Shown: one piece after another, positions 2,240 to 61,977 of the stretch
Layout of the letters: each line of letters starts with the position of its first letter
Position numbering within the stretch: position 1 is the stretch's first letter
Translations under genes and position numbers: made by a program
The notes under the pieces: generated by a model
Told to the model about the DNA's origin: nothing
Databases searched by the model: none
What the model saw: the letters and a program-made list of their open reading frames with translations, nothing else
NCBI RefSeq assembly: GCF_044647545.1
Contig: NZ_CP172818.1
Reading direction: 5' to 3' (one strand)
DNA length: 64,000 nt
Source: Escherichia coli
Lineage (GTDB): Bacteria > Pseudomonadota > Gammaproteobacteria > Enterobacterales > Enterobacteriaceae

Positions 2240-3534
2240 TATCGCTCCTGTTTATGCCCTAACTTCCGTAGCATTTCGCGCGTTACCAGCACGATGCCTT
2301 CTTCTGAACGATAGAAACGACGTGCATCTTCCTCTGCGTTTTCACCAATCACCATGCCTTCCGGAATAACACAAGCACGATCGATGACGCAGCGGCGCAG
2401 ACGGCACGAGCGACCTACCCATACTTCCGGTAACAATACGGCGGAATCAATGTTGCAGAATGAATTCACGCGAACGCGCGAGAACAGAACGGACTGCACC
2501 ACCACCGAACCGGAGATCACACAACCGCCGGAAACCAGTGAGTTAAGGGTCATCCCGTGGCTACCGGAGCGATCCTGCACGAATTTCGCTGGCGGTAATG
2601 ATTCATTGTAGGTGCGAATTGGCCAATTGCGATCGTACATATCCAGTTCCGGCACCACAGAGGCCAGATCGAGGTTCGCTTTCCAGTAAGCTTCCAGCGT
2701 ACCCACATCGCGCCAGTACGGCTCGGCATCCGGGTCGGATTGTACGCAAGAGAGCGGGAACGGATGCGCATAGGCCAGACCGGCTTCGGTGATCTTGGGA
2801 ATCAAATCTTTGCCAAAGTCGTGGCTGGAGTTCTCATCGCGATCGTCTTCTTCCAGCAGTTCATACAGATAGTCGGCGTCAAAGACGTAGATACCCATAC
2901 TCGCCAGAGATTTGCTCGGATCGTTCGGCATTGACGGTGGGTTAGCAGGTTTTTCAACGAATTCGATAATTTTATCGTTCTCATCAACCGCCATAACGCC
3001 AAATGCGGAGGCTTCTTCAATCGGTACTGGCATACAAGCAACGGTGCAACGTGCGCCTTTTTCGACGTGGTCGATAAGCATACGCGAGTAGTCTTGCTTG
3101 TAGATATGGTCGCCCGCCAGGATCACCACGTATTCCGCTTTATAACGGCGGATAATGTCGAGGTTTTGGGTAACTGCATCTGCGGTGCCGCGATACCAGT
3201 TTTCCCCTTTCATTCTCTGCTGTGCTGGCAGCAGATCGACAAACTCGTTCATTTCTTCATTGAAGAATGACCAGCCGCGCTGAATGTGCTGCACCAGAGT
3301 GTGGGACTGGTACTGGGTGATCACGCCCATACGACGGATCCCGGAGTTGATGCAGTTAGACAGCGCAAAGTCGATAATGCGGAACTTACCGCCGAAGTGT
3401 ACGGCCGGTTTTGCTCGCTTATTGGTTAAATCCTTCAGGCGGGTACCACGTCCTCCCGCCAGTATCAGGGCAACAGATTTCAATGGCAGCTGGCGCGCCA
3501 ACATTAAGTGATCGTTCTTCTCTAAACTAACCAT
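2239..3534 (-). CDS. glgC: Glucose-1-phosphate adenylyltransferase GlgC
   Basis: ORF track 2239..3570; start placed at internal Met of [16 protein letters not shown] giving 431 aa; GGRGTRL nucleotide-binding motif. Confidence 0.93.
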
Positions 3535-3551
3535 GACTAACTCCTTTTTTA

Positions 3552-5525
3552 TCATCTCTGGAACACACACAATCCGTGTGCAGGTCCCTGCCAGACAGCC
3601 GTAATCACTGGGTTATCCTCTCCAGCGAATGGGGGAATGGCGTGCCACTCCCCAGCAGGTAAAACAATCTCTGTTACCTCAAGCGTGGCGTTAATTGCGA
3701 TCAAAAAGCGATCCGAGAGCAGAATTTGCAGCTGTTTCGGCCCGTTTTGCCACTCATCCGTGCTTAAAGGTTGAGCATATCGATTTAGCCAACGGACATT
3801 GCCGTCGCCTTCTTCCCACCAGCGATTCTCCATCAAAGCGGGAATGCGCTTGCGCAGATGGATTAACGCGGCGGTAAATGCGGTTAAACCACTGCTTGCC
3901 TGCGACCAGTCCAACCAGGTTAATTGGTTATCCTGACAGTAGGCATTGTTATTGCCATGCTGGCTGTGACCATGTTCGTCACCGGCCAGTAACATCGGCG
4001 TACCCTGGGAGAGCAACAACGTTGTTAACAGGGCGTGAATGCTGTCGCGCCGCCGTTCAACCAGATCAAGAGTACCGCCTAACCCTTCTTTACCATGATT
4101 GTTACTGTAATTGTTGTTGGTCCCGTCGCGATTTTCTTCTCCGTTTGCTTCATTGTGTTTATGGTTGAAGCAAACGCAGTCGCGAAGCGTAAAACCGTCA
4201 TGCGCGGTGACGAGATTAATCGCGGCACTCGGCAGACGACCATTACGTTTAAAAACATCGCTGGAGGCAGCAAAACGCCCGGCAAACGCCCCCAGAGGCA
4301 AATCATAATGCAGCCAGAAACGACGGGCAGCATCGCGGAAATGATCGTTCCACTCGGCAAACAGCGGCGGGAAATTTCCCACCTGATAACCACCAGGAGC
4401 AATATCCCACGGTTCAGCAATTAACTTCACCTGTGAGAGCACGGGGCAGTTCTGGATAGCGGTAAACAACGGCGCATCCTGACGGAACTCTGGCGTACGG
4501 CCCATGACTGCCGCCAGATCAAAGCGGAAACCATCGACGTGGCAGGTTTCTACCCAATAACGCAGGCAGGCGCAGGCATAATCCACCACCGCCGGATGAC
4601 TCAAATTGAGCGTATTGCCGCAACCGGTCCAGTTGTGATAATCGCCGTCTTCTCTTATCCAATAATAGCTACGGTTGTCGATCCCACGCAGAGAGAATAA
4701 CGGGCCGTCGAGGTCCAGTTCCGCGCTATGGTTGAGCACGATATCAAGAATGACTTCGATACCCGCTTTATGCAGTGCTTTGATTGCATCGCGAAACTCA
4801 TGCAGCGCCGTTTCTGGGGAGCAGGCATACGCCGGATGCAGCGCAAACATCGCCACCGGGTTGTAACCCCAGTAGTTACTTAGCCCCATGCGTTGCAGAC
4901 GTGGTTCACTGGCAAACTGCGCCACCGGCAGCAGTTCCAGCGCGGTAATGCCCAACTGTTTCAAATAGTTGATCATCACCGGATGCCCCAGGGCTTTATA
5001 AGTGCCACGGATCTCGACCGGGATCTCCGGGTGCAGGTACGTTAATCCTTTGACATGGGCTTCATAAATGATGGTACTGCCCCACGGCGTGCGCGGCGGA
5101 GCATCATCCTCCCAGTCATAGTGATCAACCACCACTACGCATTTCGGCGCAATGGCGGCGTTGTCGCGATAGTCAGGTTCATTATGACCGGCGTGCAGCA
5201 GCGGGTTATCTTTAAACTCCCCGTCAATTTGCCGCGCGCAAGGATCAATCAACAACTTCGCCGGGTTAAAGCGATGCCCCTCGGCGGGTTGCCAGGGGCC
5301 ATGAACGCGATAACCATAACGCAAACCCGGACGCGCATCCGGCAGATAACCGTGCCAAATGTCGCCACTGTGCCCTGGCAAGTCATAGCGATGTTCCTGG
5401 CCATTGGCGTCAAAGATACACAGTTCTACCCGCTCGGCATGAGCGGAGAAAAGTGTGAAGTTGACGCCCTGACCGTCGTAATGCGCGCCGAGGGGTGCGG
5501 GTTTGCCAATGGCGAGTTGTGTCAT
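3552..5525 (-). CDS. glgX: Glycogen debranching enzyme GlgX
   Basis: ORF track 657 aa; [31 protein letters not shown]-terminus; GFRFD catalytic region of GH13. Confidence 0.95.
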
Positions 5526-7708
5526 TCTGCCTCCCGAACCAGCCAGATAGTGGCCAGCGGTGGTAGTGTCAGGCTTAGTGAATGCTGACGACCGTGGCTG
5601 GCAATCTCATCGCTGTGTACCGTGCCGCCATTGCCGGCATTACTGCCGTGATAGTGCATGGAATCGGTATTGAGGATTTCACGCCATTTGCCCGGCTGGT
5701 TAATGCCGAAGCGATAATCATGACGCGGCACCGGAGTAAAGTTACTGGCAACGATGATTTCGTTACCCTCTTTATCGCGACGCACAAAGATCAGCACCGA
5801 GCGTTCTTTGTCATCCACCACCAGCCATTCAAAGCCGTACGGGTCAAAATCCAGTTCATGCATTGCTTTATGGTGGCGGTAGGTGAGGTTCAGATCGCGC
5901 ACCAGACGCTGGACACCGTGGTGCCAGTTATCGCCGCCTTCCAACAGATGCCAGTCGAGGCTGGCGTCATGGTTCCACTCGCGGCCCTGGGCAAATTCGT
6001 TCCCCATGAACAGCAATTTCTTGCCCGGGAATGCCCACATCCAGCCGTAGTAGGCGCGCAGGTTAGCGAATTTCTGCCATGCGTCGCCCGGCATCCGATC
6101 GAGAATCGATTTTTTACCGTGGACCACTTCATCATGCGACAACGGCAGGACGAAGTTTTCAGTGTAGTTGTAGAGCATCCCGAAGGTCAGTTTATCGTGA
6201 TGATACTGACGATAAACCGGGTCGAGCTTCATGTAGTCCAGGGTGTCATGCATCCAGCCGAGGTTCCACTTGTACCAGAAGCCCAGACCGCCCATGTCCT
6301 GCGGACGAGAAACGCCAGGGAAATCGGTAGACTCCTCCGCCATTGTCACCGCACCGGAAACCTGCTCACCAAGAATACGGTTGGTATTACGCAAGAATTC
6401 AATCGCTTCAAGATTCTCGCGCCCGCCAAATTCGTTCGGGATCCACTCCCCCTCTTTACGGCTGTAGTCGCGGTAAATCATTGACGCCACCGCATCGACG
6501 CGCAGCGCATCAATACCAAAACGTTCGATCCAGTAAAGCGCGTTACCGACAAGGAAGTTACTGACTTCACGGCGACCATAGTTGTAGATCAGCGTATTCC
6601 AGTCCTGATGATAGCCTTCGCGCGGATCGCTGTGTTCATACAAGTTCGTGCCATCAAATTCGGCAAGCGCAAAGTCATCGGTCGGGAAGTGGCCTGGCAC
6701 CCAGTCGAGAATCACGTTCAGACCAGCTGCGTGTGCGGCATCAATGAAATAACGGAAGTCGTCGCGAGTACCAAAACGGCGGGTCGGTGCATACAGGCCG
6801 GTTGGCTGATAACCCCAACTGCCATCGAAGGGATGCTCGTTAATGGGCAGTAGCTCGAGATGGGTAAAGCCCATCCATTTAGCATAAGGCACCAGTTGAT
6901 CGGCCAGCTCGCGGTAGCTCAACCAGAAATTGTTGTCGGTGTGGCGACGCCAGGAGCCCAGGTGAACTTCATAAATAGAGATTGGCGCATCAAACTGATT
7001 CGCTTTTTTGCGCTCTTCAGTCTGTACAACCTTTTCCGGCAGCCCGCAAATAAGAGACGCGGTTTCCGGGCGCATTTGCGCTTCGAAGGCATAAGGGTCG
7101 GACTTCAGACGCAAGTTGCCATTGGCATCAATCATCTCGTATTTATAGAGCTGACCGTTATGCGCCCCAGGGATAAACAGTTCCCAGATGCCGCTCTCTT
7201 TACGCAGGCGCATCGGATGACGGCGACCGTCCCAGTAGTTGAATTGCCCAACCACCGAGACCCGACGGGCGTTTGGAGCCCAGACAGAAAAACGCGTACC
7301 TGTGACGCCATCCATAGTATCTGCATGCGCGCCTAAGGTTTCATACGGGCGCAGGTGAGTACCTTCAGATAATAGCCAGGCATCCATTTCCTGGATTAGC
7401 GGACCAAAACGGTAAGGATCATCAATCAGGTTTTGCTGACCATGCCAGACAACAGCCAACTGATAGCGGAAAAAATTCTTACGTCGCGGAATGACACCGC
7501 TAAAGAATCCCCGTGAGTCGAGACACTCCAGTTTTGCGAGTTTGCGCCCGGTTTTCGGTTCAATCACCCACACATCGGTAGCGTCGGGTAAAAGGGCACG
7601 GACTTCCAGTCCCGCGGTGGTTTTATGCATCCCCAGTACGGAAAAAGGATCCGCAAAATGGCCTGCAATTAGCGCGTTAATCACGTCTCTATCGATACGA
7701 TCGGACAT
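5522..7708 (-). CDS. glgB: 1,4-alpha-glucan branching enzyme GlgB
   Basis: ORF track 728 aa; [29 protein letters not shown]-terminus; 4-nt overlap with glgX start. Confidence 0.95.
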
Positions 7709-7944
7709 GCTTGTCTTCCTGTTTTATTGTGTCACCCCATCCAACTGAATTTTTGACTTCTGGTTGTGACATTTTTTTGACCTGAACGGCGCAGCACTCT
7801 GTGCATCCTCTCTGCGTCGTCCTCACTTCAGGTAAGGCTGTGAATACTCGTGTATTCCGCCACCCTTAAAGAATAGCCAATGCTCTATTTAACTCCCGGT
7901 AAATCATGAAACATCTGCGCTTACTCCTGTATTACGCACTAGCA

Positions 7945-7962
7945 GGGGCGGCATCGCGCCCC
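7945..7962 (-). terminator. GC hairpin (ggggcg-N6-cgcccc) just downstream of asd stop; possible terminator
   Basis: Perfect 6-bp inverted repeat seen in sequence; no strong U tract on the asd strand, so weak. Confidence 0.3.
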
Positions 7963-7980
7963 AGATTTAATGAATAAAGA

Positions 7981-9084
7981 TTACGCCAGTTGACGAAGCA
8001 TCCGACGTAGCGGCTCCGCGGCCCCCCACAGCAGCTGGTCGCCCACGGTAAAGGCTGACAGGAACTCCGGTCCCATATTCAGCTTACGCAGACGGCCTAC
8101 CGGCGTGGTCAGCGTGCCGGTAACGGCAGCTGGGGTTAGCTCACGCATAGTGATTTCCCGATCGTTTGGAACAACTTTCGCCCACGGATTGTGCGCAGCC
8201 AGCAGTTCTTCCACGGTCGGAATAGACACATCTTTTTTCAATTTAATAGTGAATGCCTGGCTATGGCAGCGCAATGCCCCGACACGCACACATAAACCAT
8301 CTACCGGAATTACGGAAGATGTGTTGAGGATCTTGTTGGTTTCCGCCTGCCCTTTCCACTCTTCGCGGCTCTGACCGTTATCAAGCTGTTTGTCGATCCA
8401 CGGAATCAGGCTACCCGCCAGCGGCACGCCAAAGTTATCTACCGGCAGCTCACCGCTACGGGTTAAGGTTGTGACTTTGCGTTCGATATCGAGAATAGCA
8501 GAGGACGGGGTCGCGAGTTCATCTGCCACATGGCCATACAGATGGCCCATCTGGGTTAATAACTCACGCATATGTCGCGCACCACCGCCGGAAGCGGCCT
8601 GGTAGGTTGCAACGGACACCCAATCAACAAGATCATTGGCGAATAAACCACCCAACGACATCAACATCAGGCTTACGGTACAGTTACCGCCAACAAAAGT
8701 CCTGATGCCATTATTTAATCCGTCGGTAATGACGTCCTGATTGACGGGGTCAAGAATGATGATGGCGTCATCTTTCATGCGCAGAGATGATGCTGCGTCA
8801 ATCCAGTAACCTTGCCATCCGCTTTCACGAAGCTTTGGATAGATTTCGTTGGTATAATCGCCGCCCTGACAGGTCACAATGATATCGAGGGCCTTTAGCG
8901 CCTCCAGATCAAAGGCATCCTGAAGTGTGTCAGTGGTTCCGCCAAAAGACGGCGCAGCCTGACCAAGCTGAGAAGTAGAAAAGAAGACAGGGCGAATGGC
9001 GTCGAAGTCGCGCTCTTCAACCATGCGTTGCATGAGAACGGAGCCGACCATACCGCGCCAGCCGATAAAACCAACATTTTTCAT
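7981..9084 (-). CDS. asd: Aspartate-semialdehyde dehydrogenase Asd
   Basis: ORF track 7981..9144; start placed at [16 protein letters not shown] (367 aa); C-terminus RRMLRQLA. Confidence 0.93.
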
Positions 9085-9275
9085 AAGCGTTTTTTCCTGC
9101 AAAGATGTGTGCTGTATAAATGTGCCGGTCTCCTCCTGGCACATCTTTCACCATACAAAAAGCAGCCAAAGTCGCAAGTGAAATTAATCAATGATAGCGA
9201 AGCCATCAGTAATGCGACTTATCCTGCTTTGTTAGCACGCAGAAAGTCCGCGGCAATTATCAGGGAATTTGAGTT

Positions 9276-9869
9276 ATGAATGAAATCATTTCTGCAGCAG
9301 TTTTATTGATCCTGATTATGGATCCGCTCGGAAACCTACCTATTTTCATGTCCGTACTGAAACATACTGAACCGAAAAGACGGCGGGCAATCATGGTGCG
9401 AGAGTTGCTTATTGCTCTCCTGGTGATGCTGGTGTTCCTGTTTGCGGGTGAGAAAATTCTGGCATTTCTCAGCCTGCGAGCAGAAACCGTCTCCATTTCT
9501 GGCGGCATCATTCTGTTTCTGATCGCCATTAAGATGATTTTCCCCAGCGCTTCAGGAAATAGCAGCGGGCTTCCGGCAGGTGAAGAGCCGTTTATCGTGC
9601 CGTTGGCAATTCCGTTAGTCGCCGGGCCGACTATTCTCGCCACGCTGATGTTGTTGTCTCATCAGTACCCGAATCAGATGGGACATCTGGTAATTGCTCT
9701 GCTGCTGGCCTGGGGTGGCACCTTTGTCATCCTGCTACAGTCTTCGCTATTTTTACGTCTGCTGGGCGAGAAAGGGGTGAATGCACTTGAACGCCTGATG
9801 GGATTGATTCTGGTGATGATGGCAACTCAGATGTTCCTCGACGGCATTCGAATGTGGATGAAGGGGTAA
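9276..9869 (+). CDS. yhgN: MarC-family inner membrane protein YhgN
   Basis: ORF track 197 aa, hydrophobic; MNEIISAAVLLILIMDPLGNLPIF N-terminus. Confidence 0.9.
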   Translation: MNEIISAAVLLILIMDPLGNLPIFMSVLKHTEPKRRRAIMVRELLIALLVMLVFLFAGEKILAFLSLRAETVSISGGIILFLIAIKMIFPSASGNSSGLPAGEEPFIVPLAIPLVAGPTILATLMLLSHQYPNQMGHLVIALLLAWGGTFVILLQSSLFLRLLGEKGVNALERLMGLILVMMATQMFLDGIRMWMKG

Positions 9870-9880
9870 CGTTCAATCTC

Positions 9881-10001
<121 letters not shown>

Positions 10002-10062
10002 CGGATAGTTTTTACGATAAAGTACCTGGTTTGCTTCACAACTACCGGCGCGAACAAAAAAA

Positions 10063-11403
10063 TTAACTCAACAGCTGGAACGCAATCATCCCAACGATGG
10101 CACCAACAGTGCCGAGTATGGTTTCCATCATGGTCCAGGTTTTCAGCGTTTCGGCTTCGGTCGCGCCGGTAAATTTACCGAACAACCAGAAACCGGCGTC
10201 GTTAACGTGGCTGACAACAATCGAACCACCGGCGATACAAATCGACAGCGCCGCCATTTGCGCACCGGAGTAGTTCAGTTGTTCAATAACCGGCATCACC
10301 AGTCCCACCGCCGTTAAACAGGCAACGGTGGCAGAACCCTGAATGATGCGCACTGCAGCTGCCAGCACGAAGCAGGTGATGGCAATCGGCAGGCCCATGC
10401 CGGTTAACGCTTCGCCCAGTGCCGGACCTACGCCTGAGTCAACCAGCACCTGTTTGAACACGCCGCCCGCACCAATCACCAGCAGAATGATCCCCGCCGG
10501 TTGCAGCGCGTGACCGCAAATCTCCATCACTTTGTCTTTTGGCATGCCCTGACGCATTGCCAGACCGTAAATCGCCACCAGACAAGCAACCAGAATCGCG
10601 GTAAACGGATGGCCGATAAACTCGAACCATTCGTAAGCGGTAGAGCCTTCTGGCACAAAACGCGCGGCAATGGTTTTCAGCCCCACCAGCACCAGTGGCA
10701 ACAGGATCAGCGACAGGCTGAATCCGAAGGACGGCATTTTGCCTTCGCCGAGATGTGGTTCGCTGATGTCGTCAGGAATATGCAGCTCCACGTAGCGGCT
10801 GATGAAATTACCCCACAGCGGCCCGGCAATAATCATTCCCGGAATTGCCGCACACAGGCCAATCAGGATCATCCAGCCAAAGTCGGCGTTCATCTGCGAT
10901 GCCAGCAGCATTGGCGCTGGTCCAGGCACCAGGAACGCAGCCGCTGCCGCCACGCCTGCGAATAATGGGATTACCAGCTTCACCAGGTTCGTACCGGTGT
11001 GGCGCGCCATTGAGAAAGCAACGCTAATCAGCAGAACAATCGCCACTTCAAAGAACAGCGGTAGCGCACAGACCAGCCCCGCAAGACCGATGGCATAATG
11101 CGCGCGACTGTGACCGAAGGATTTGAGCATTTTGACGGCAATCTGATCGACTGCGCCGGTTTCATGTAAGATCTTGCCAAACATGGCTCCCAGGGCGACA
11201 ACCACCGCCAGAAAGCCGAGGGTGCCTCCCATCCCTTTTTCCATCGTCGCTGCGATTTTATCGAGCGGCATACCGGAAAAAAGGCCAGCCCCCATGGACA
11301 CCACCATCAAAGCCAGGAAAGCGTGCATACGCGCCTTCATGACTAAAAACAGCAGCAGTAAAACAGACCCTACTGCTGTTAAAACAAGCGTTAATGTAGT
11401 CAC
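10063..11403 (-). CDS. gntU: Low-affinity gluconate transporter GntU
   Basis: ORF track 446 aa, polytopic membrane protein; MTTLTLVLTAVGSVLLLLFLVMKARM N-terminus. Confidence 0.93.
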   Translation of the reverse strand: MTTLTLVLTAVGSVLLLLFLVMKARMHAFLALMVVSMGAGLFSGMPLDKIAATMEKGMGGTLGFLAVVVALGAMFGKILHETGAVDQIAVKMLKSFGHSRAHYAIGLAGLVCALPLFFEVAIVLLISVAFSMARHTGTNLVKLVIPLFAGVAAAAAFLVPGPAPMLLASQMNADFGWMILIGLCAAIPGMIIAGPLWGNFISRYVELHIPDDISEPHLGEGKMPSFGFSLSLILLPLVLVGLKTIAARFVPEGSTAYEWFEFIGHPFTAILVACLVAIYGLAMRQGMPKDKVMEICGHALQPAGIILLVIGAGGVFKQVLVDSGVGPALGEALTGMGLPIAITCFVLAAAVRIIQGSATVACLTAVGLVMPVIEQLNYSGAQMAALSICIAGGSIVVSHVNDAGFWLFGKFTGATEAETLKTWTMMETILGTVGAIVGMIAFQLLS

Positions 11404-11406
11404 TAC

Positions 11407-11934
11407 TTATTTGCCTTTTTTAATAACCTCAATGGTGCTTGCCACAACACCTTCCAGCGGTTGATCGATATCCACCACCAGTACATCGGTTTCGTCCGCA
11501 CCCGGCTCCTGCAGCGTTTCAAACTGCGTCACCAACATTTGGGTTTTAAAGAAATGGCCTTTGCGCGCTTTCAGGCGGCTTTCAATCACATCAAAATCGC
11601 CTTTCAGGTAGATGAAAGAGAGATTCGGATTACCCGCGCGTAGCAAGTCGCGATAGTGTTTTTTCAGTGCAGAACAGACGATCAGCGACACTTTATTGGT
11701 GCGCTGCATAGCAAACGCGGCGTCGTTCAGCGCCTGCAACCACGGTTTGCGATCGTCGTCATTCAGCGGTTCACCAGACGCCATTTTTTCGATATTGCGC
11801 CGTGGATGGAGGAAATCGCCATCAAGAAACGCGGCATGAAGTTGATGCGCCACTTCACTGGCGACCGCAGATTTGCCGCTGCCCGATACGCCCATCAAGA
11901 CGTAAATGTGGTGATCATGGTTAGTCGTGCTCAA
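11407..11934 (-). CDS. gntK: Gluconokinase GntK (thermoresistant), likely TTG start
   Basis: ORF track 11407..11955; canonical 175-aa protein begins at (L/M)STTNHDHHIYVLMGVSGSGKSAV; Walker A GVSGSGKS. Confidence 0.88.
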   Translation of the reverse strand: MSTTNHDHHIYVLMGVSGSGKSAVASEVAHQLHAAFLDGDFLHPRRNIEKMASGEPLNDDDRKPWLQALNDAAFAMQRTNKVSLIVCSALKKHYRDLLRAGNPNLSFIYLKGDFDVIESRLKARKGHFFKTQMLVTQFETLQEPGADETDVLVVDIDQPLEGVVASTIEVIKKGK

Positions 11935-11964
11935 AGTGGTGCCCCCACAATACAAGAATTAAAA

Positions 11965-11993
11965 ATGTTACGGGTAACTGTTATCGGTAACAT
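11965..11993 (-). promoter_or_regulatory. Tandem GntR operator half-sites in gntKU promoter
   Basis: Plus strand atgttacgggtaactgttatcggtaacat, reverse complement atgttaccgataacagttacccgtaacat, matching the GntR operator consensus ATGTTACC-N-GTAACAT; about 30-60 bp upstream of gntK start. Confidence 0.65.
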
Positions 11994-12072
11994 TGTCCGG
12001 CCGGACAATATCAGAAGCAATATCCATCCGTGCCTTAAGTGTATAAGTGTGAGCTACTTCAAATTTGTGGGC

Positions 12073-13068
12073 TTAAATAGATCCGCCCGGTGACAAGGTG
12101 AAACCTAAATCTAACATTTTCGGTGTCACAGATTCGCCACGAATACGCGCCAGCAGGCGTTCAGCGCCAATACTGCCCATCCGCTCACGCGGCGTCAGTA
12201 CGCTCGCCAACCGTGGTTCCATCACCTGACCAATGTCATGACCATGGAAACCGGCAATCGCCATATCGTCAGGAACTTTTAACCCCAGACGCTGACATTC
12301 AAACGCCGCGCCGACCGCCAGATCATCATTAGTACAGAACACGCCATCCAGCTGCGGATATTCCCGCCGTGCCTGGCGAATCAGTTCAATACCGGAAGAG
12401 TAAGAAGAAGATTGCTCAACCATCACGCTATACGGCACCAGGCCTGCATCCAGCATCGCCTGTTCGTATCCCTTCTGTTTGATGATAGTACGTTCGTCGA
12501 GACGTGCGCCGAGATAGGCAATGTGGCGATGCCCGCGAGCAATAATGGCAGTGGTCATCTGGCGTGCCGCTTCAAAGTTATCAAAACCGACGGCAATATC
12601 GAGGCACGGCGACTTGCTGTCCATCAACTCCACCACCGGAATCCCCGCCACTTCAATCATCTTTAAGGTGCGTGGCGTGTGAGTACGTTCGGTGAGGATC
12701 AGGCCGTCGATATTCCATGAGAGCATGGATTCGAGGCGTTCTTGCTCCATTTCCGGTTTATAACCGTAGTGCGCCAGCATGGTTTGATAACCGTGCGCGT
12801 CGGTGACGCTTTCGATTCCGCGTAATACTTCCGCGAAAACCTGGTTGGTGAGAGAAGGTAACAGGACGCCAATCGCCCGGCTGGTGGCGTTAGAGAGGAT
12901 ATCGGGCGCGCGATTGGGAATATAACCCAGTTCATCAAGAGCGGCGGCAATCTTGCCGCGTAGAGCGACGGAAACCTGCTCCGGGTTGCGTAAAAAACGG
13001 CTGACCGTCATTTTGGTCACGCCTACACGGTCAGCCACATCCTGAAGTACGGGTCTTTTCTTTTTCAT
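12073..13068 (-). CDS. gntR: Gluconate repressor GntR (LacI family)
   Basis: ORF track 331 aa; N-terminal helix-turn-helix MKKKRPVLQDVADRVGVTKMTVSRFL. Confidence 0.93.
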   Translation of the reverse strand: MKKKRPVLQDVADRVGVTKMTVSRFLRNPEQVSVALRGKIAAALDELGYIPNRAPDILSNATSRAIGVLLPSLTNQVFAEVLRGIESVTDAHGYQTMLAHYGYKPEMEQERLESMLSWNIDGLILTERTHTPRTLKMIEVAGIPVVELMDSKSPCLDIAVGFDNFEAARQMTTAIIARGHRHIAYLGARLDERTIIKQKGYEQAMLDAGLVPYSVMVEQSSSYSSGIELIRQARREYPQLDGVFCTNDDLAVGAAFECQRLGLKVPDDMAIAGFHGHDIGQVMEPRLASVLTPRERMGSIGAERLLARIRGESVTPKMLDLGFTLSPGGSI

Positions 13069-13212
13069 CGTCCTGAAGGTACAAAAGAGATAGATTCTTT
13101 TAGTTTAACACGGACGCCTCAGAACCTTCCCGGGGAAAACAGTGCTTGTTTACAATTATTAGATATACACTAAATCAATTGCATCGCATTGTGCTAACGA
13201 CACGGCAAAACC

Positions 13213-13274
13213 CCGGTCGCGTACATCAGCACGCGACCGGAGCGAGCGAGGAAGCCTGCAAAAAGGCAGGCTTC
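13213..13274 (-). terminator. Two tandem hairpins downstream of yhhW; the distal one is followed by GGUUUUGCC on the minus strand
   Basis: Inverted repeats ccggtcgcgt/acgcgaccgg (13213-13240) and gaagcctgc/gcaggcttc (13251-13274). Confidence 0.45.
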
Positions 13275-13291
13275 AAAGATGCCGTTGAGTT

Positions 13292-13987
13292 TTAAACCGG
13301 CGGCAGATCGAACAGTAACACTTCGCTGTCGCTATCCGCATGAATGGAGATTGCCTGCTCATCCCAGATTGCCAGACCATCGCTGGTCGAGGCTTTCACG
13401 CCGTTAATGGTGACATTGCCTTTCACCACCTGGATCCAGACGCGGCGTTCAGCGGCAATCTGATGCACCGACTGCTCATCTTTCAGCAATGCCCAACGAT
13501 ACAGTTCCATATCCTGATGCACTTTCAGCGAACCATCTCGCGCATCCGGCGAGAGCACCAGCTGTTTGCCCTGTACGGCATCGAAGCGACGCTGTTCATA
13601 ACGCGGCGTAATGCCGTTTTCTTCAGGCATGATCCAGATCTGATACAGATGCAGACGCTCGGTGCTGCTTGGGTTGTACTCAGAGTGACGGATACCCGTA
13701 CCCGCACTCATAATCTGGAACTCACCCGCCGGAACCTGCTCTTTATTGCCCATGCTGTCCTGGTGCTCAACAGTACCTTCCAGCACGTAGGTCAAAATTT
13801 CCATATCTTTATGCGGGTGAGTACCGAAGCCCTGCCCTGCTTCAATCACGTCGTCGTTAATCACGCGCAGCGCGGAGAAACCCATAAAGTTCGGGTCGTA
13901 GTAGTTGGCAAAAGAGAAAGTATGCCAGGAGTCCAGCCAGCCATGATTTGCATGACCACGTTCATTTGCTTTGCGTAAGTAGATCAT
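13292..13987 (-). CDS. yhhW: Pirin-like quercetin 2,3-dioxygenase YhhW (cupin)
   Basis: ORF track 231 aa; MIYLRKANERGHANHGWLDSWHTFSF and HPHKDMEILTYVLEG cupin metal-site motif. Confidence 0.9.
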   Translation of the reverse strand: MIYLRKANERGHANHGWLDSWHTFSFANYYDPNFMGFSALRVINDDVIEAGQGFGTHPHKDMEILTYVLEGTVEHQDSMGNKEQVPAGEFQIMSAGTGIRHSEYNPSSTERLHLYQIWIMPEENGITPRYEQRRFDAVQGKQLVLSPDARDGSLKVHQDMELYRWALLKDEQSVHQIAAERRVWIQVVKGNVTINGVKASTSDGLAIWDEQAISIHADSDSEVLLFDLPPV

Positions 13988-14109
13988 TTGTATTCGCCCC
14001 CTGAATGTTTTCGATGGGCTTAGTGTGGACCCGATCTGCCTGGGATGATAGAGGGTGAAAATTGACCCCTATGTTCAAAAAAATTGAACTATTCGAGGGG
14101 CCATCAAAC

Positions 14110-15147
14110 TTACTTCGCGAGAGTCACTGTGGAGGGAGAGGCTTGCTCAAAACCGCGTTCAAGGATTTCCAAATTGGTAAGAACTTCAGATTCCTTGACG
14201 TAATTTGGCGCACCGTTGGTGATGGTTTGATACAACGCATCATAAACGCGCCCGTAATCGCCCATCTCCGGCTTCATCTCTTCTCTGACCGTCACCCCCT
14301 CGTCATTGACATACTCCAGCACACCGACCGAATCATCCGCTGCGAATCCCGGTTCGCCCGGCATAATATTAGCCTTGAGGCTGGTTTCCTGCTGGTCGAT
14401 ACCGTATTTAATAAACGAACCTTTCTTACCGTGAACGATAAATTTCGGATAATCGATTTTCACCAGATGGCTGGTTTTGACGATGGCTTTCAGGTCGCCA
14501 TAAAACAGCTGCGCTTCAAAGGTGTCGTCAGGATTGGCTTTATTACGCAGGCTGCGGATGTCATAAGCGACGTGATCCGGGCGACCGAACAGAGAAATAA
14601 TCTGGTCCATCGTATGCACACCAAGGCCATAGAACGCGCCATCCTGCGGCAGCCCAGGTTTGGTTTCTGCCACCGGGCGGTAATAGTCAAAATGGCTTTC
14701 CACTTCAACAATCTCTCCCAGCTTGCCGCTTTCAATCGCTTTTTTCGCCGTCAGAAAACAGGAATCAAAGCGACGATTCTGATACGGCGTGACGGTCAGC
14801 CCTTTACTTTTCGCCAGCGCAAAAAGTTCTTTCGCTTGCGCAAGCGTCGGAGTGAATGGTTTTTCGACCAGCACATTTTTCCCGGCTTCCAGCGCGCGCT
14901 TCGCGTACTCGAAGTGGCTGTCCGCATGGGTGCAGACAACAACCAGCTTAACATCGGGATCGTTTAGCACTTCGTCGAGATCGCTGGTGAAATGGATATG
15001 AGAGTAAATGGGAGCCTGTTCTTCCGGCTTCGCATGGCGACGAAAAATATGCGCGACATGCCAGCTATCCTTGCGGTTAAGTACATACGGCAGATGGTAA
15101 CGGGTGGTGCTTTTGCCGAAGCCAATAAAGGCGCAGTTGATGACCAT
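14110..15147 (-). CDS. yhhX: Gfo/Idh/MocA-family NAD(P)-dependent oxidoreductase YhhX
   Basis: ORF track 345 aa; N-terminal Rossmann segment MVINCAFIGFGKSTTRYHLPYV. Confidence 0.88.
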   Translation of the reverse strand: MVINCAFIGFGKSTTRYHLPYVLNRKDSWHVAHIFRRHAKPEEQAPIYSHIHFTSDLDEVLNDPDVKLVVVCTHADSHFEYAKRALEAGKNVLVEKPFTPTLAQAKELFALAKSKGLTVTPYQNRRFDSCFLTAKKAIESGKLGEIVEVESHFDYYRPVAETKPGLPQDGAFYGLGVHTMDQIISLFGRPDHVAYDIRSLRNKANPDDTFEAQLFYGDLKAIVKTSHLVKIDYPKFIVHGKKGSFIKYGIDQQETSLKANIMPGEPGFAADDSVGVLEYVNDEGVTVREEMKPEMGDYGRVYDALYQTITNGAPNYVKESEVLTNLEILERGFEQASPSTVTLAK

Positions 15148-15269
15148 GATTTCGTCCTTTTTAAGGGGGTTATTTACACCTTAGCGCAAAGCGGACGTGG
15201 TTCCTACTGGAGTGCGCATAACGAACACAAGCACTTCCCGTGGATAATTTGAAAACGAAAGATCAAAAA

Positions 15270-15359
15270 AAAAGCCAGCACCCGGCTGGCTAAGTAATAC
15301 TGGAAGCAATGTGAGCAATGTCGTGCTTTCAGGTTCTCCGCGAGGGTCTTCCTGATCGC
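15270..15359 (-). ncRNA. ryhB: Small regulatory RNA RyhB (iron-sparing sRNA) with intrinsic terminator
   Basis: Minus strand reads GCGATCAGGAAGACCCTCGCGGAGAACCTGAAAGCACGACATTGCTCACATTGCTTCCAGTATTACTTAGCCAGCCGGGTGCTGGC followed by T9; matches RyhB as I recall it; located between yhhX and yhhY as in K-12. Confidence 0.9.
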
Positions 15360-15362
15360 AAG

Positions 15363-15384
15363 ACAATAATAATCATTCTCATTC
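15363..15384 (-). promoter_or_regulatory. Fur box overlapping the ryhB promoter
   Basis: aataataatcattctcatt immediately upstream of the RyhB 5-prime end resembles the Fur consensus GATAATGATAATCATTATC. Confidence 0.6.
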
Positions 15385-15480
15385 GCACTTGTCCAACACT
15401 TTTTGCAAAAAAATGCATTTGACTCGCATTTGAAAGTCAATGATGTTGAAAGGGACATTTACCCCAAAGAGGACAAAGGA

Positions 15481-16305
15481 ATGAGTGAGATAGTAATACG
15501 CCACGCAGAAACACGCGATTACGAGGCCATCAGGCAGATTCACGCCCAGCCGGAGGTGTATTACAACACGCTACAGGTGCCTCATCCTTCAGAACAAATG
15601 TGGCTGGAACGACTCACCGCTCGCCCTGGCATCAAGCAGTTAGTCGCCTGTATTGATGGAATCGTCGTAGGCCATCTCACCATTGACGTGCAACAACGCC
15701 CACGCCGCAGTCATGTTGCCGACTTTGGTATCTGTGTCGACTCCCGTTGGAAGAACCGCGGCGTCGCCAGCGCCCTGATGCGAGAGATGATTGAAATGTG
15801 CGACAACTGGTTGCGGGTAGATCGTATTGAGCTAACGGTGTTCGTCGATAACGCGCCAGCAATTAAGGTCTATAAAAAATTTGGCTTTGAGATTGAAGGG
15901 ACTGGCAAGAAGTACGCGCTGCGTAAGGTGAATCGGGAGATCATGGGGTGCGCAACTTACGATGTGTGGGTAGGTGCTGCGGCTCCTCCGGCCCCGCCCG
16001 CTACGGCGGGCTACGGCGCGCGGCCGCCGCCGCAAACGGCGCCGCACGAATCGGGCCGCGGGGCCGCCTGCCCGCTCCGCGCCCCGGCGGTCCCGCGCAC
16101 GGGCAGGGCACCGCGCGGGGCCAGCGCGGGCGCGCAGCGGTTACGCGACCCCGGGGGGTGCGCGTTCGGTGACGCACGGGCGACGCGGGGGCAGGCCGCG
16201 CACCCGACGGGGGGGACGGGGCGGCCGCGGCCCGCCGGGGCCCAGCGCGACGGGGGGCCCGACGGGCCGGCGGGGCGAGCCCTCACCTACCGGGAGAGGG
16301 CTTAA
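15481..16305 (+). CDS. yhhY: GNAT N-acetyltransferase YhhY, reading frame extended into a GC-rich block because no stop occurs at the expected 162-aa position
   Basis: ORF track 15403..16305; MSEIVIRHAETRDYEAIRQIHAQPEV start at 15481; after about 162 residues the frame continues as low-complexity Ala/Pro/Gly/Arg-rich sequence to 16305. Confidence 0.7.
   Translation: MSEIVIRHAETRDYEAIRQIHAQPEVYYNTLQVPHPSEQMWLERLTARPGIKQLVACIDGIVVGHLTIDVQQRPRRSHVADFGICVDSRWKNRGVASALMREMIEMCDNWLRVDRIELTVFVDNAPAIKVYKKFGFEIEGTGKKYALRKVNREIMGCATYDVWVGAAAPPAPPATAGYGARPPPQTAPHESGRGAACPLRAPAVPRTGRAPRGASAGAQRLRDPGGCAFGDARATRGQAAHPTGGTGRPRPAGAQRDGGPDGPAGRALTYRERA
15967..16276. other. About 310 bp block of extreme GC content (by eye well above 80 percent) between yhhY and ggt; open in several frames, no recognisable gene
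   Basis: Seen directly: runs such as ggccccgcccgctacggcgggctacggcgcgcggccgccgccg; contrasts sharply with the roughly 50 percent GC flanks; right edge abuts a hairpin gccctc-N11-gagggc and the ggt stop. Confidence 0.85.
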
Positions 16306-16309
16306 GATA

Positions 16310-18055
16310 TTAATACCCCGCCGTTAAATCATCCACCGAGCGCGAGTCGGATGCACCGTACAACTCACCATCCGACCCAACCATAATGCTTTGCGTACTG
16401 CCCATCGCCTCTTTCAGCGCCACTTTCTGACCTTTTGCTTCCAGCAGCTTGAGCGTATCCGGGCTAAACCCTTTTTCGACACGCAGCTCGTCCGGCAACC
16501 ACTGATGGTGGAAACGTGGCGCATTGGTCGCTTCGGCGACATTCATACCACAATCGATGCTATTCACCACCATTTGCAGCACGGTAGTGATGATCCAGCT
16601 CCCGCCAGGGCTACCGGTAACCAGCCAGGTTTTACCGTCTTTCACCACAATGGTGGGTGACATCGACGACAGCGGGCGTTTATTCGGCCCGACCGCGTTG
16701 GCGTCACCACCCACCAGCCCGTAAACGTTCGGTACGCCCGGTTTGGCGGAGAAATCATCCATCTGGTTATTGAGCAAAATACCGCTCTCGCCCGCGACAA
16801 TGCCCGTCCCGAAGGTGGTGTTCAGCGTATAGGTCACCGCCACCGCGTTACCGTCTTTATCCACCACTGAGTAATGGGTAGTTTGATTACTCTCATAAGG
16901 CGCAAGCTTGCCGGGGCGAATTTCGCTGGATGGCTTCGCTTTATTGATATCGATTTGATCGGCAATAGATTTGGCATAGGCTTTATTGGTCAGCGCCTGC
17001 CACGGTACTTTGACAAAATCCGGATCGCCAAGATATTCCGAGCGGTCGGCGTAGGCGTATTTCTCAGCTTCTGCCATGATTTGCATCGCGTCGGCACTGC
17101 CAAAGCCGTACTTCTTCATATCGAAGTTTTCCAGGATATTGAGGATCTGCACGATATGAATCCCACCGGAAGATGGCGGTGGCATCGAGTAAACCTGATA
17201 CCCGCGATATTCGCCGCTAATCGGTGTACGTTCGACCGCTTTATACGCCGCTAAATCTTCTTTAGTGATCAAGCCACCGTTTTTCTGCATCTCCTGGGCA
17301 ATCTGTTCCGCTATCGTGCCTTTGTAGAATTCGTCCGGGCCGTTTTCGGCAATCATCTCCAGGCTCTTTGCCAGGTTCGCCTGCACCAGCTTGTCACCCT
17401 TTTTCAGCGGCGCGCCCTCTTTCCAGAAGATAGCCTTGCTGTTTTCGTGATTCGGCAATACTTCGCTACCGTAGGTTTTGAGATCGTCAGCCAACGCGTC
17501 GTTAACGATAAAACCATCGCGTGCCAGTTTAAACGCCGGTTGCACCACTTTGTTCAACGGCATGGTGCCGTACTTCTCCAACGCCAGCGAGAAACCTGCT
17601 ACCGTACCGGGCGTACCAGAAGCCAGATGCGAAGTGAGTGATTTTTTGCTGTCCGGGTTACCCTGATCATCAAGGAACATATCGCGGGTCGCTTTGGCGG
17701 GTGCCATTTCGCGGAAATCGATAGCCGTGGTATTGCCATTTTTCGAGCGGATTAACATAAAACCACCGCCGCCCAGATTCCCCGCCTGCGGATGCGTTAC
17801 CGCCAGCGCGTAGCCCACTGCCACGGCAGCATCAACGGCATTCCCGCCCTCCTTGAGGATATCCACCCCCACCTGAGTGGCAGTAGCATCTACAGACGCC
17901 ACCATCCCCTGTTTCGCGCGTACCGGATGAAAGACATCTTCCTCCACGCCGTAAGAAACAGGAGACGGCGCAGGTGGCGCGGCTACCGTACTAAAACAAC
18001 TTCCTGTGAACAGAGCAGCAATGGCCACCCGGCGTAAAAACGTCGGTTTTATCAT
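16310..18055 (-). CDS. ggt: Gamma-glutamyltranspeptidase Ggt
   Basis: ORF track 16310..18082; start placed at MIKPTFLRRVAIAAL signal peptide (580 aa); Thr nucleophile region TTHYSVVD; C-terminus DDLTAGY. Confidence 0.93.
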   Translation of the reverse strand: MIKPTFLRRVAIAALFTGSCFSTVAAPPAPSPVSYGVEEDVFHPVRAKQGMVASVDATATQVGVDILKEGGNAVDAAVAVGYALAVTHPQAGNLGGGGFMLIRSKNGNTTAIDFREMAPAKATRDMFLDDQGNPDSKKSLTSHLASGTPGTVAGFSLALEKYGTMPLNKVVQPAFKLARDGFIVNDALADDLKTYGSEVLPNHENSKAIFWKEGAPLKKGDKLVQANLAKSLEMIAENGPDEFYKGTIAEQIAQEMQKNGGLITKEDLAAYKAVERTPISGEYRGYQVYSMPPPSSGGIHIVQILNILENFDMKKYGFGSADAMQIMAEAEKYAYADRSEYLGDPDFVKVPWQALTNKAYAKSIADQIDINKAKPSSEIRPGKLAPYESNQTTHYSVVDKDGNAVAVTYTLNTTFGTGIVAGESGILLNNQMDDFSAKPGVPNVYGLVGGDANAVGPNKRPLSSMSPTIVVKDGKTWLVTGSPGGSWIITTVLQMVVNSIDCGMNVAEATNAPRFHHQWLPDELRVEKGFSPDTLKLLEAKGQKVALKEAMGSTQSIMVGSDGELYGASDSRSVDDLTAGY

Positions 18056-23693: not shown

Positions 23694-23794
23694 GGCGGTG
23701 ACGGCGCGGGCGAGGGAAAATGGGAGATGGGGCACGGATAAGCGGGAAAAATAGAAGGTCTGAATCAAACTCTACAGATTGCTCATCGTTTCAT

Positions 23795-23894
<100 letters not shown>

Positions 23895-23954
23895 ATTTTA
23901 CATTTGTAACCTGTCTCAAAGGAGTCTTTTGACTCCTTATCAATCAACGTGTTA

Positions 23955-29598: not shown

Positions 29599-29627
29599 TC
29601 GTCAAGTTTGATTTCACAAGTGATATT

Positions 29628-29727
<100 letters not shown>

Positions 29728-29785
29728 TGAAGCAACGTACTCGATATTAGCAATTTGGCGGCAACCCAAAGTTGCCGATTAATGA

Positions 29786-47411: not shown

Positions 47412-50235
<2,824 letters not shown>

Positions 50236-50278
50236 CTATTAAAATTAAGTTCGTACGTCTGTAAAAAAGGATTTTACG

Positions 50279-53200
50279 ATGAGCGGAAAACCGGCGGCGC
50301 GTCAGGGCGACATGACGCAGTATGGCGGTAGCATTGTTCAGGGTTCTGCCGGGGTGCGTATTGGTGCCCCCACCGGCGTGGCCTGTTCAGTGTGCCCCGG
50401 CGGGGTGACGTCCGGTCATCCGGTCAATCCGCTGCTGGGTGCAAAGGTCCTTCCCGGCGAAACCGACCTTGCCCTGCCCGCCCCGCTGCCGTTCATCCTC
50501 TCCCGCACCTACAGCAGTTACCGGACAAAAACGTCCGCGCCGGTGGGGAGCCTCGGCCCCGGCTGGAAAATGCCTGCGGATATCCGCTTACAGCTGCGCG
50601 ATAACACACTGATACTCAGTGATAACGGCGGCAGAAGCCTGTATTTTGAGCACCTGTTTCCCGGTGAGGACGGTTACAGCCGCAGCGAGTCACTCTGGCT
50701 GGTGCGCGGCGGCGTGGCGAAACTGGATGAAGGTCACCGGCTGGCCGCACTCTGGCAGGCGCTGCCGGAAGAGCTTCGCCTGAGTCCGCATCGTTATCTG
50801 GCGACGAACAGTCCACAGGGGCCGTGGTGGGTACTCGGCTGGTGTGAGCGGGTGCCGGAGGCGGATGAGGTGCTGCCTGCGCCGCTGCCGCCGTACCGGG
50901 TACTGACCGGGCTGGTGGACCGCTTCGGGCGCACACAGACGCTCCACCGCGAAGCCGCCGGTGAATTCAGCGGCGAAATCACCGGCGTGACGGATGGTGC
51001 CGGGCGTCACTTCCGGCTGGTACTGACCACGCAGGCGCTGCGGGCAGAAGAGGCCCGGCAGCAGGCCATTTCCGGCGGGACGGAACCGTCCGCTTTTCCT
51101 GATACCCTGCCGGGTTACACCGAATATGGCCGGGACAACGGTATCCGCCTGTCCGCCGTGTGGCTGACGCACGACCCGGAATATCCGGAGAATTTACCTG
51201 CCGCGCCGCTGGTGCGCTATGGCTGGACGCCACGCGGCGAACTGGCGGTGGTGTATGACCGCAGCAATACACAGGTGCGCAGCTTTACTTACGATGATAA
51301 ATACCGGGGCCGGATGGTGGCGCACCGTCACACGGGCCGGCCGGAAATCCGTTACCGTTACGACAGTGACGGGCGGGTGACAGAACAGCTAAACCCGGCA
51401 GGCTTAAGCTACACCTATCTGTTATGAGCAAAACCGCATCACCATCACCGACAGCCTGAACCGCCGTGAAGTCCTGCATACGCAGGCGAAGGCGGCCTGA
51501 AGCGGGTGGTGAAAAAGGAACACGCGGACGGCAGCGTCACGCAGAGTCAGTTTGACGCGGTGGGCAGGCTTAAGACACAGACGGATGCCGCAGGCCGGAC
51601 AACAGAATACAGCCCGGATGTGGTGACGGGCCTCATCACGCGCATCACCACGCCGGATGGCAGGGCATCGGCGTTTTACTATAACCACCACAGCCAGTTA
51701 ACGTCAGCCACCGGGCCTGACGGGCTGGAAATACGCCGGGAATATGATGAATCCGGCCGTCTGATTCAGGAAACCGCCCCTGACGGCGATATCACCCGCT
51801 ACCGTTATGATAATCCACACAGTGACTTCCCCTGCGCAACGGAAGATGCCACCGGCAGCCGGAAAACCATGACGTGGAGCCGTTACGGTCAGTTGCTGAG
51901 CTTCACCGACTGTTCCGGCTACCAGACCCGTTATGACCATGACCGCTTCGGGCAGATGACGGCGGTGCACCGCGAGGAAGGCCTGAGCCAGTGCCGCGCA
52001 TACGACAGCCGTGGACAGTTAATTGCCGTGAAAGACACGCAGGGCCATGAAACGCGGTATGAATACAACATCGCCGGTGACCTGACCGCCGTCATTGCCC
52101 CGGACGGCAGCAGAAACGGGACACAGTACGATGCGTGGGGAAAGGCCATCCGTACCACGCAGGGCGGGCTGACCCGCAGTATGGAATACGATGCTGCAGG
52201 ACGGGTCATCCGCCTGACAAACGAAAACGGCAGCCACACCACCTTCCGTTACGATGTACTCGACCGGCTGATACAGGAAACCGGCTTTGACGGCCGCACA
52301 CAGCGTTACCACCACGACCTGACCGGCAAACTTATCCGCAGCGAGGATGAGGGGCTGGTCACCCACTGGCACTATGACGAAGCAGACCGCATCACGCAGC
52401 GAACGGTGAATGGTGAAACCGCAGAACAGTGGCGGTACGACGAACGCGGCTGGCTGACACAAATCAGCCATCTCAGCGAAGGGCACCGGGTGACGGTGCA
52501 TTACGGGTATGATGAGAAAGGCCGCCTGACCGGTGAGCGCCAGACGGTGCATCATCCGCAGACGGAAGCACTGCTCTGGCAGCATGAGACCAGACATGCG
52601 TACAACGCGCAGGGGCTGGCGAACCGCTGTATACCGGACAACCTGCCCGCCGTGGAATGGCTGACTTATGGCAGTGGTTACCTGGCAGGGATGAAACTCG
52701 GCGACACACCGCTGGTGGAGTACACCCGCGACCGCCTGCACCGGGAAACGCTGCGCAGCTTCGGCCGTTATGAACTCACCACCGCTTATACCCCTGCCGG
52801 GCAGTTACAGAGCCAGCACCTGAACAGCCTGCAGTATGACCGCGATTACACCTGGAACGACAACGGCGAACTCATTCGCATCAGCAGCCCGCGCCAGACC
52901 CGGAGTTACAGCTACAGCGACTCCGGCAGGCTGACCGGCGTTCACACCACCGCAGCGAACCTGGATATCCGCATCCCGTATGCCACGGACCCGGCAGGTA
53001 ACCGCCTGCCCGACCCGGAGCTGCACCCGGACAGCACCCTCAGCATGTGGCCGGATAACCGTATCGCCCGTGACGCGCACTATCTTTACCGGTATGACCG
53101 TCACGGCAGGCTGACGGAGAAAACCGACCTCATCCCGGAAGGGGTTATCCGCACGGATGATGAGCGGACTCACCGGTACCATTACGACAGCCGGCACCGG

Positions 53201-54514
53201 CTGGTGCACTACACGCGGACACAATATGCAGAGCCGCTGGTCGAAAGTCGCTATCTTTACGACCCGCTGGGCCGCAGGGTGGCAAAACGGGTGTGGCGGC
53301 GTGAACGGGACCTGACGGGCTGGATGTCGCTGTCACGGAAACCGGAAGTGACCTGGTACGGCTGGGACGGCGACCGCCTGACCACGATACAGAACGACAG
53401 AACCCGCATCCAGACGGTTTATCAGCCGGGGAGCTTCACACCACTCATCAGGGTCGAAACCGCCACCGGTGAGCAGGCGAAAACGCAGCGCCGCAGCCTG
53501 GCGGATGCGCTTCAGCAGTCCGGCGGCGAAGACGGTGGCAGTGTGGTGTTCCCGCCGGTGCTGGTGCAGATGCTCGACCGGCTGGAAAGTGAAATCCTTA
53601 CTGACCGGGTGAGTGAGGAAAGCCGCCGCTGGCTGGCATCGTGCGGCCTGACGGTGGCGCAGATGCAAAACCAGATGGACCCGGTGTACACGCCGGCGAG
53701 AAAAATCCACCTGTACCACTGCGACCATCGCGGCCTGCCGCTGGCGCTTGTCAGCACGGAAGGGGCAACAGAATGGTGCGCAGAATACGATGAGTGGGGC
53801 AACCTGCTGAATGAAGAGAACCCGCACCAGCTGCAACAGCTTATCCGCCTGCCGGGTCAGCAGTATGATGAGGAGTCAGGCCTGTATTACAACCGCCACC
53901 GCTATTATGACCCGCTGCAGGGGCGGTATATCACTCAGGATCCGATTGGGCTGAAGGGGGGATGGAACCTGTATGGATATCAATTGAATCCGATATCAGA
54001 CATCGACCCCCTGGGTTTATCTATGTGGGAGGATGCAAAATCGGGGGCATGTACTAATGGTCTTTGCGGCACACTATCCGCTATGATAGGTCCAGATAAG
54101 TTTGATTCTATAGATAGCACCGCATATGACGCCTTAAATAAAATAAATAGCCAATCTATTTGCGAAGATAAAGAGTTCGCTGGTTTAATATGTAAGGATA
54201 ATAGTGGCAGATATTTCTCAACAGCACCTAACCGAGGGGAAAGAAAAGGATCATATCCATTCAATAGCCCTTGCCCTAATGGTACTGAGAAAGTATCAGC
54301 TTATCATACTCATGGTGCAGATAGTCATGGAGAATATTGGGACGAAATATTTTCAGGCAAAGATGAGAAAATAGTTAAAAGTAAAGATAACAATATCAAG
54401 TCATTTTATTTGGGCACGCCCAGTGGTAATTTTAAAGCAATAGATAACCACGGGAAGGAAATAACAAACGGAAAAGGATTACCTAATGTCTGCAGAGTTC
54501 ATGGTAATATGTAA
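50279..54514 (+). pseudogene. rhsB: Rhs core protein RhsB with C-terminal toxin tip; interrupted by an in-frame TGA at 51425-51427, frame resumes downstream (ORF track segments 50279..51427 and 51506..54514)
   Basis: N-terminus MSGKPAARQGDMTQYGGSIVQGSAGVRIGAPTGVACSVCPGG; YD-repeat core; core-tip boundary motif DPIGLKGGW near 53940; both segments in the same frame, total 1412 codons as for intact RhsB. The break could be a real disruption or sequence error. Confidence 0.8.
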
Positions 54515-54869
54515 AAAAATATTTTTTAGGAACTGTGTCATTGTATCTTTGTTTGTTTTTACATACAACACATGGGCGCAGTGTAATAATAATATTAAAA
54601 TAATGCGCAAGTATGAAAGTGAGGGTAAATATACCGTTAGAAATTTGGTTAAAAATAAAGCTATAGCATTGGAATTAGCTGAGATATATGTTAAGAATCG
54701 TTATGGGCAGGATGCCGCAGAAGAAGAAAAACCATATAAAATCACTGAGTTAACAACAAGTTGGGTTGTTGAAGGCACCATTCACTCAGACCAAATTGCT
54801 GGTGGGGTTTTTATTATAGAAATAGGCAAAAATGATGGGGTAATTCTGAATTTTGGCCACGGAAAATAA
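54486..54869 (+). CDS. yhhH: Probable Rhs immunity protein YhhH, overlapping the 3-prime end of rhsB
   Basis: ORF track 127 aa; start lies 29 nt inside the rhsB tip, the usual toxin-immunity arrangement; AT-rich like the tip. Confidence 0.75.
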
Positions 54870-54958
54870 GTATGTAAGGATAATCAAACATCGTGTGCGC
54901 TGATGGCAGAGTAGGTGGAGGACTCCAGACAGTCAAACGATAAAAAAAGATAGCCTTT

Positions 54959-55357: not shown

Positions 55358-55464
55358 ATAATTCGCATTTTATGTTTAAAAATTGAGATATTCCTCATTA
55401 CCTGAAGCTGTTTTTTATTGCTTATACATGATCAAATACTCCTTACATAATTAAGGAGAACAAA

Positions 55465-56601: not shown

Positions 56602-56688
56602 TCTTTCCCTGATACAAAAAAAAAACAAGTTCAAAACTTTATCCGGCAATCAATATATACACACAATATGAAGTCAAGTTTCCCTTCC

Positions 56689-61612: not shown

Positions 61613-61977
61613 AATCGACCCGCCATAATCCCTGTAAGCAAACGACGCGTGTTACAACTGCCGCCGAACGACGTTCAGCGGATTCTTCCATCCGGGATAA
61701 GAAGGAAACGGCAAATACGACCAGCGCGCAGAGCATTGAGCGCCAACGTGGAAGGCTTAGTGAAAACGGGTAGTAATGTTGTCATCATCAGCATTCCTGG
61801 CCGTAAATGAAACACGCATACTCATAAGTGTGATCTATAAAACTGGCTGACAAAACGGTATCCATCCTGTTGGATAGCGTTTCACGCCTGTTCAGTTGCA
61901 GGAACAGAGCATTCCTTATTACGTTTTATCAACAGTCTCAACCAGATAGTAACATTAATATTCATGTTGTCTATGGT

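Follow-up and report, generated by a model that had tools for sequence, protein, structure and literature searches.

An intact ryhB small RNA gene with a predicted Fur box in the yhhX-yhhY interval of an Escherichia coli chromosome

The gap between yhhX and yhhY carries the gene of the small RNA RyhB in the stretch of Escherichia coli DNA analysed here (64,000 nucleotides of contig NZ_CP172818.1, hereafter the window; positions are counted from its first letter). The transcribed region of ryhB, a 95-nt span delimited by the K-12 annotation and by identity to the K-12 gene b4451, lies on the minus strand at 15265-15359. The classical 90-nt RyhB RNA occupies 15270-15359 of the same strand, its 5' end being the G at 15359, which is placed by homology. 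Downstream of ryhB and on the same strand is yhhX (14110-15147), which encodes an oxidoreductase of the GFO/IDH/MocA type with GFO_IDH_MocA domains. On the other side, the native part of yhhY (15481-15933, plus strand), encoding a GNAT N-acetyltransferase, is divergent from ryhB, and its 3' end is replaced from position 15934 by a block of very high G+C content (the GC block). The position of ryhB between these two genes and its orientation, on the strand of yhhX, are those found in K-12, and the gene order gntR-yhhW-yhhX-ryhB-yhhY-ggt is that of E. coli genomes.

The whole 64 kb window was scanned with cmscan against the 4227 families of Rfam 15 at gathering thresholds. The only match at gathering level, among all 4227 families, was to RF00057 (RyhB), at 15266-15330 on the minus strand, with a score of 83.1 bits against a gathering threshold of 55 and an E-value of 3.6e-14. 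The preliminary description of this DNA, made from the letters alone, had placed a RyhB small RNA on the minus strand of the yhhX-yhhY gap and had named an Infernal scan with the RyhB model as a way to check it; the scan, the sequence identity to b4451 and the protein domains of the flanking genes all bear out this placement. The match extends over the full model (1-67 of 67) and is not truncated. It takes in the conserved RyhB core, consisting of the target-pairing stem-loop, the AU-rich linker and the terminator hairpin (15266-15330, minus strand). The match is far beyond chance, and the ryhB feature is real. Of the RNA, only the 3' 65 nt fall within the Rfam model, while the backing for the 5' 29 nt is their identity to K-12 only. 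The minimum free energy (MFE) of the 94-nt RNA is by itself no better than that of shuffled sequences (z = -0.59), so that ryhB would have escaped notice if structure prediction had been the sole guide.

Reading the minus strand of the region 15100-15600 downwards from the start at 15359 gives GCGATCAGGAAGACCCTCGCGGAGAACCTGAAAGCACGACATTGCTCACATTGCTTCCAGTATTACTTAGCCAGCCGGGTGCTGGC, followed by nine Ts. The letters of the minus strand at the locus are GCGATCAGGAAGACC...GCCAGCCGGGTGCTGGC TTTTTTTTT. The ncRNA ryhB of K-12 MG1655 (b4451, 3580922-3581016) is identical to 15265-15359 of the window, minus strand, at 95 of 95 nucleotides, and a three-way alignment shows that these transcribed nucleotides are the same in the window, in K-12 and in E. 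coli FDAARGOS_497, the closest reference. The -35 and -10 hexamers, the Fur box, the terminator, the yhhX and yhhY flanks and the orientation also agree with K-12. The differences from K-12 amount to one base at -1 and, downstream of the terminator, two substitutions. The base at -1 (position 15360, minus strand) is T here and C in K-12, and is the only difference in the upstream 120 nt. The T is common to the window and FDAARGOS_497, which identifies it as a strain polymorphism.

The region 14000-16400 was found by megablast in 5425 of 5426 complete E. coli genomes, where the features are annotated as yhhX, yhhY and ggt. A 146-bp segment comprising the promoter and the RNA is present in 5424 of the 5426, always on the chromosome, with a median of one copy per genome. 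In 4282 genomes the identity of this segment is at least 99%, and exact matches occur in other complete genomes. Nothing is annotated at the position of ryhB in the 12 RefSeq E. coli (PGAP) records listed, and the record of FDAARGOS_497 likewise has no feature there, in keeping with the expectation that annotation confined to open reading frames would miss the gene. In NZ_CP033850.1 the locus tags pass from EGY17_RS07140 (yhhX) to RS07150 (yhhY), with no RS07145 feature at the ryhB position.

A consensus scan of 15000-15700 found one sigma-70-like promoter, TGGACA-18 nt-TATTAT, agreeing with the consensus at 10 of 12 positions. Its -35 hexamer is at 15390-15395 and its -10 hexamer at 15366-15371, both on the minus strand. 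The latter ends 6 nt before the transcription start at 15359, and the spacing fits a start at this G. Putative Fur sites were sought by scoring all 19-mers on both strands of the window (128 kb of strand) against GATAATGATAATCATTATC. The best match, GAGAATGATTATTATTGTC in minus-strand letters, is situated at 15362-15380, overlapping the -10 hexamer and stopping 3 nt short of the transcription start. It agrees with the consensus at 16 of 19 positions on the plus strand and at 15 of 19 on the minus strand, and is the only site in the window that reaches at least 15 of 19. A second Fur-like 19-mer, GCGAATGAGAATGATTATT, at 15368-15386 on the minus strand (14 of 19), overlaps the first with a shift of 6 bp. 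Together they fit a cluster of Fur sites that overlap one another. Such a cluster, with an information content of 25.2 bits, was described at -15 of K-12 ryhB by Chen et al. 2007, who confirmed binding by gel shift; it consists of one strong site and two weaker sites overlapping it (PMC2189734). The alignment shows that the sequence of the Fur box is the same in the window and in K-12. The predicted box over the -10 hexamer has the layout that would be expected for repression by occlusion. That the promoter is under Fur control, as had been proposed, thus appears correct, since it carries the best match to the Fur consensus in the window and the identical K-12 box bound Fur in the gel shift (PMC2189734). 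Fur control, the transcription start and the 3' end are assigned to this strain by homology.

The Rho-independent terminator hairpin, AGCCAGC-CGGGU-GCUGGCU, lies at 15273-15291 on the minus strand and has seven base pairs, five of them G-C, and a loop of 5 nt. The same hairpin recurs in the MFE structure, in the centroid structure and in the Rfam consensus structure. It is followed by a run of nine Ts (15265-15273, minus strand), of which the first closes the stem and the other eight come after it. This run is the tail of the terminator and the 3' polyU of the Hfq-binding module, which is complete here: AGUAUUACUU is followed by the 7-bp hairpin and then by the U run. A polyU tail of nine was also given for RyhB by Morita et al. 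2015, who found that Hfq binding requires a 3'-terminal polyU (PMC4509938). The hairpin and T9 of the preliminary description are therefore both present as stated. The terminator had also been called strong; as read-through at the RyhB terminator is about 20% in normal, unstressed growth (PMC4509938), the word is fair if not taken as absolute. The interval 15270-15384 given for the locus includes the 90-nt RNA and the Fur box, but it stops short of the terminator's last five Ts and of the -35 hexamer (15390-15395).

Between the ryhB terminator and the start of yhhX there is a weaker terminator-like hairpin (15226-15242, minus strand), with six pairs and a poor T tail, which is probably a chance match. 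Transcripts reading through the ryhB terminator would enter yhhX.

The part of RyhB that would act as the seed against the translation start of sodB, nucleotides 38-46 (GACAUUGCU; 15314-15322, minus strand), was located by complementarity. It can form nine contiguous Watson-Crick pairs with positions -4 to +5 of K-12 sodB, the AUG included. In a longest-perfect-complement test against sodB, a run of nine was reached by 28 of 2000 shuffles of RyhB. The duplex restricted to the seed region (RyhB nucleotides 37-57 and sodB -14 to +6) has a computed energy of -18.0 kcal/mol. These two calculations replaced a full-length RNAduplex run of RyhB against the sodB leader, which returned an unrealistic duplex of 86 nt that did not stand out from shuffles, 71 of 500 of which scored as well. 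The predicted seed pairing reproduces the classical interaction of RyhB with sodB.

The surroundings of the gene were compared by local megablast of the window with 66 kb of FDAARGOS_497. Collinear segments extend over 2349-9876 (99.99% identity), 10061-15933 (99.98%), 16278-50216 (99.96%) and 56649-64000 (99.96%). The ryhB gene is well inside the second of these, showing that it is part of the native E. coli chromosome. The contrast drawn earlier between this native interval and the neighbouring GC block is upheld, as the block, at 15934-16277, is unmatched in the collections searched. In K-12 a yhhZ-yrhA-IS1-yrhB island is situated between yhhY and ggt, whereas in the window and in FDAARGOS_497 yhhY abuts ggt, the GC block aside.

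The GC block is 344 bp long, with a G+C content of 83% overall and 87% in its core. In its place the native sequence has 63 bp, which hold the last 12 codons of yhhY with the stop codon and a portion of the spacer between yhhY and ggt. The yhhY frame consequently stays open to 16305 and would encode 274 instead of 162 amino acids, with a tail of 124 GC-encoded codons added by the block. At the left junction there is a deletion of 1 nt, followed by 7 nt that are the same as in the native sequence (GGTGAAT). A blastn search in its 'distant' setting gave no match to the block in the 5426 E. coli genomes, the PLSDB plasmids or the INPHARED phages, with a low-complexity filter that limits the sensitivity of this search. 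Exact 28-35-mers from the block were absent from viral, genome and metagenome contig collections, a result whose sensitivity is limited by the demand for exact matches. The block may be an assembly artefact, a synthetic insert or a unique insertion.

A second unmatched block of extreme composition lies, like the GC block, between convergent gene ends. In the gap between yhgN and gntU, at about 9873-10040, there is an A-rich low-complexity tract of about 125 bp (core 9880-10004), with runs of up to 29 As and with 100-bp windows in which the G+C content falls to 10%. The spacing between yhgN and gntU is only 56 bp in E. coli 1190, and coverage of positions 9700-10250 stays below 80% in every complete E. 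coli genome. At the same place FDAARGOS_497 has a 3.5-kb island encoding a DprA/RecQ-family helicase (7529-11002 of the compared segment), which is absent from the window at 9877-10060. Two further features were seen in the rest of the window. From 50217 to 56648, between nikR and yhhJ, the window has a segment of 6.4 kb that FDAARGOS_497 lacks, a hicAB toxin-antitoxin pair standing there instead. This segment is 96-97% identical to the rhsB-yhhH-yhhI (ISEc1/H-repeat) island found in other E. coli and is ordinary strain-variable Rhs content. There is also a pair of inverted repeats of about 107 bp and about 87% identity (23790-23896 and 29625-29731). When positions are carried over from the annotated FDAARGOS_497 record by their offset, one copy falls in the ugpB-livF intergenic region and the other in the panM-livJ region. 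The pair probably represents a repetitive extragenic element.

Two other explanations of the locus were considered. It could be a decayed or silent RyhB-like remnant, put out of action by the substitution at -1 or by disturbance from the GC block. One promoter base does differ from K-12, and an anomalous block of 344 bp begins 575 bp upstream of the transcription start, beyond yhhY. Against this reading, the RNA sequence agrees with that of K-12 at 100% of its positions, and the -35, -10, Fur box and terminator show no change. The T at -1 recurs in FDAARGOS_497, and the 146-bp segment is matched exactly in other complete genomes. The GC block, which starts at 15934, lies well clear of the ryhB promoter, with the entire native 5' region of yhhY in between, and leaves all elements of ryhB untouched. 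It is extremely unlikely, therefore, that the gene has decayed or fallen silent.

The locus might, on the other hand, encode a small protein instead of an RNA, as two overlapping open reading frames on the minus strand, at 15204-15458 (84 aa) and 15181-15366 (61 aa), are present in the six-frame list. Pfam gave no match to either of them at E <= 0.01, and the 84-aa frame would have to start ahead of the promoter and continue across the terminator. In the curated annotation of K-12 the ncRNA ryhB stands here and no CDS, and the conservation of the region is accounted for by the covariance-model match. The protein-coding reading, the probability of which is close to nil, was dropped. What the sequence comparisons point to, almost with certainty, is a native and intact ryhB gene of the E. 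coli chromosome, and no observation speaks against that identification.

In K-12, the repression of RyhB by Fur, its dependence on Hfq, its set of targets and the coupled degradation of the RNA with its targets are established. The sources for this regulation and these targets are reportedly the studies of Masse and Gottesman in 2002 and of Masse and co-workers in 2003 and 2005. The textbook model is the most likely working model for the gene described here; its sequence-level elements (identity, covariance-model match, synteny, the promoter, Fur-box and terminator motifs and the complementarity to sodB) are shown above, and its regulatory and biochemical steps are carried over from the K-12 literature. 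When iron is sufficient, Fur loaded with Fe2+ would occupy the cluster of Fur boxes at 15362-15386 over the -10 hexamer and block RNA polymerase. Iron scarcity would release Fur, and synthesis of an RNA of about 90-95 nt would begin with the G at 15359 and stop at the hairpin and U run (15291-15265). Hfq would then bind and stabilise RyhB by way of the AU-rich linker, the terminator hairpin and the 3' polyU, and the exposed loop (about nucleotides 37-57) would pair with mRNAs of dispensable iron-using proteins at their translation-initiation regions, the expected targets including sodB, sdhCDAB, acnB, fumA, ftnA and bfr. This pairing would block translation and lead to RNase E-dependent degradation of the small RNA together with the mRNA, thus sparing iron.

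Similar RNAs are found in other bacteria. RyhB-1 (RfrA) and RyhB-2 (IsrE/RfrB) of Salmonella belong to the same Rfam family, are repressed by Fur, depend on Hfq, act in iron sparing and have the same conserved core. Salmonella thus carries two copies of RyhB, whereas the window has a single match to RF00057. PrrF1 and PrrF2 of Pseudomonas are functional analogues, being Fur-repressed small RNAs that lower the amounts of iron-containing proteins. IsrR of Staphylococcus is a further Fur-regulated iron-sparing analogue (PMC9410917). PrrF1, PrrF2 and IsrR belong to separate families that have no sequence homology to RyhB, so that the RNA described here is a true RyhB and not a mere analogue.

The gene at this locus is an already known, textbook gene. 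It adds no new biology, and no novel reading of RyhB itself survives the evidence; the judgement that it was not novel was correct. If the GC block, which sits in the transcription unit divergent from ryhB, is a real insertion, an effect on local transcription or supercoiling at the control region of ryhB and yhhY is conceivable but very unlikely.

In the iron-sparing response of E. coli, RyhB acts as a central regulator. A scan that takes RNA into account recovers here a real gene left blank by annotation centred on coding sequences, and the locus can serve as a positive control for such scans. The presence of ryhB also anchors the interval as native chromosome, making its contrast with the nearby pair of unmatched blocks of extreme composition all the sharper.
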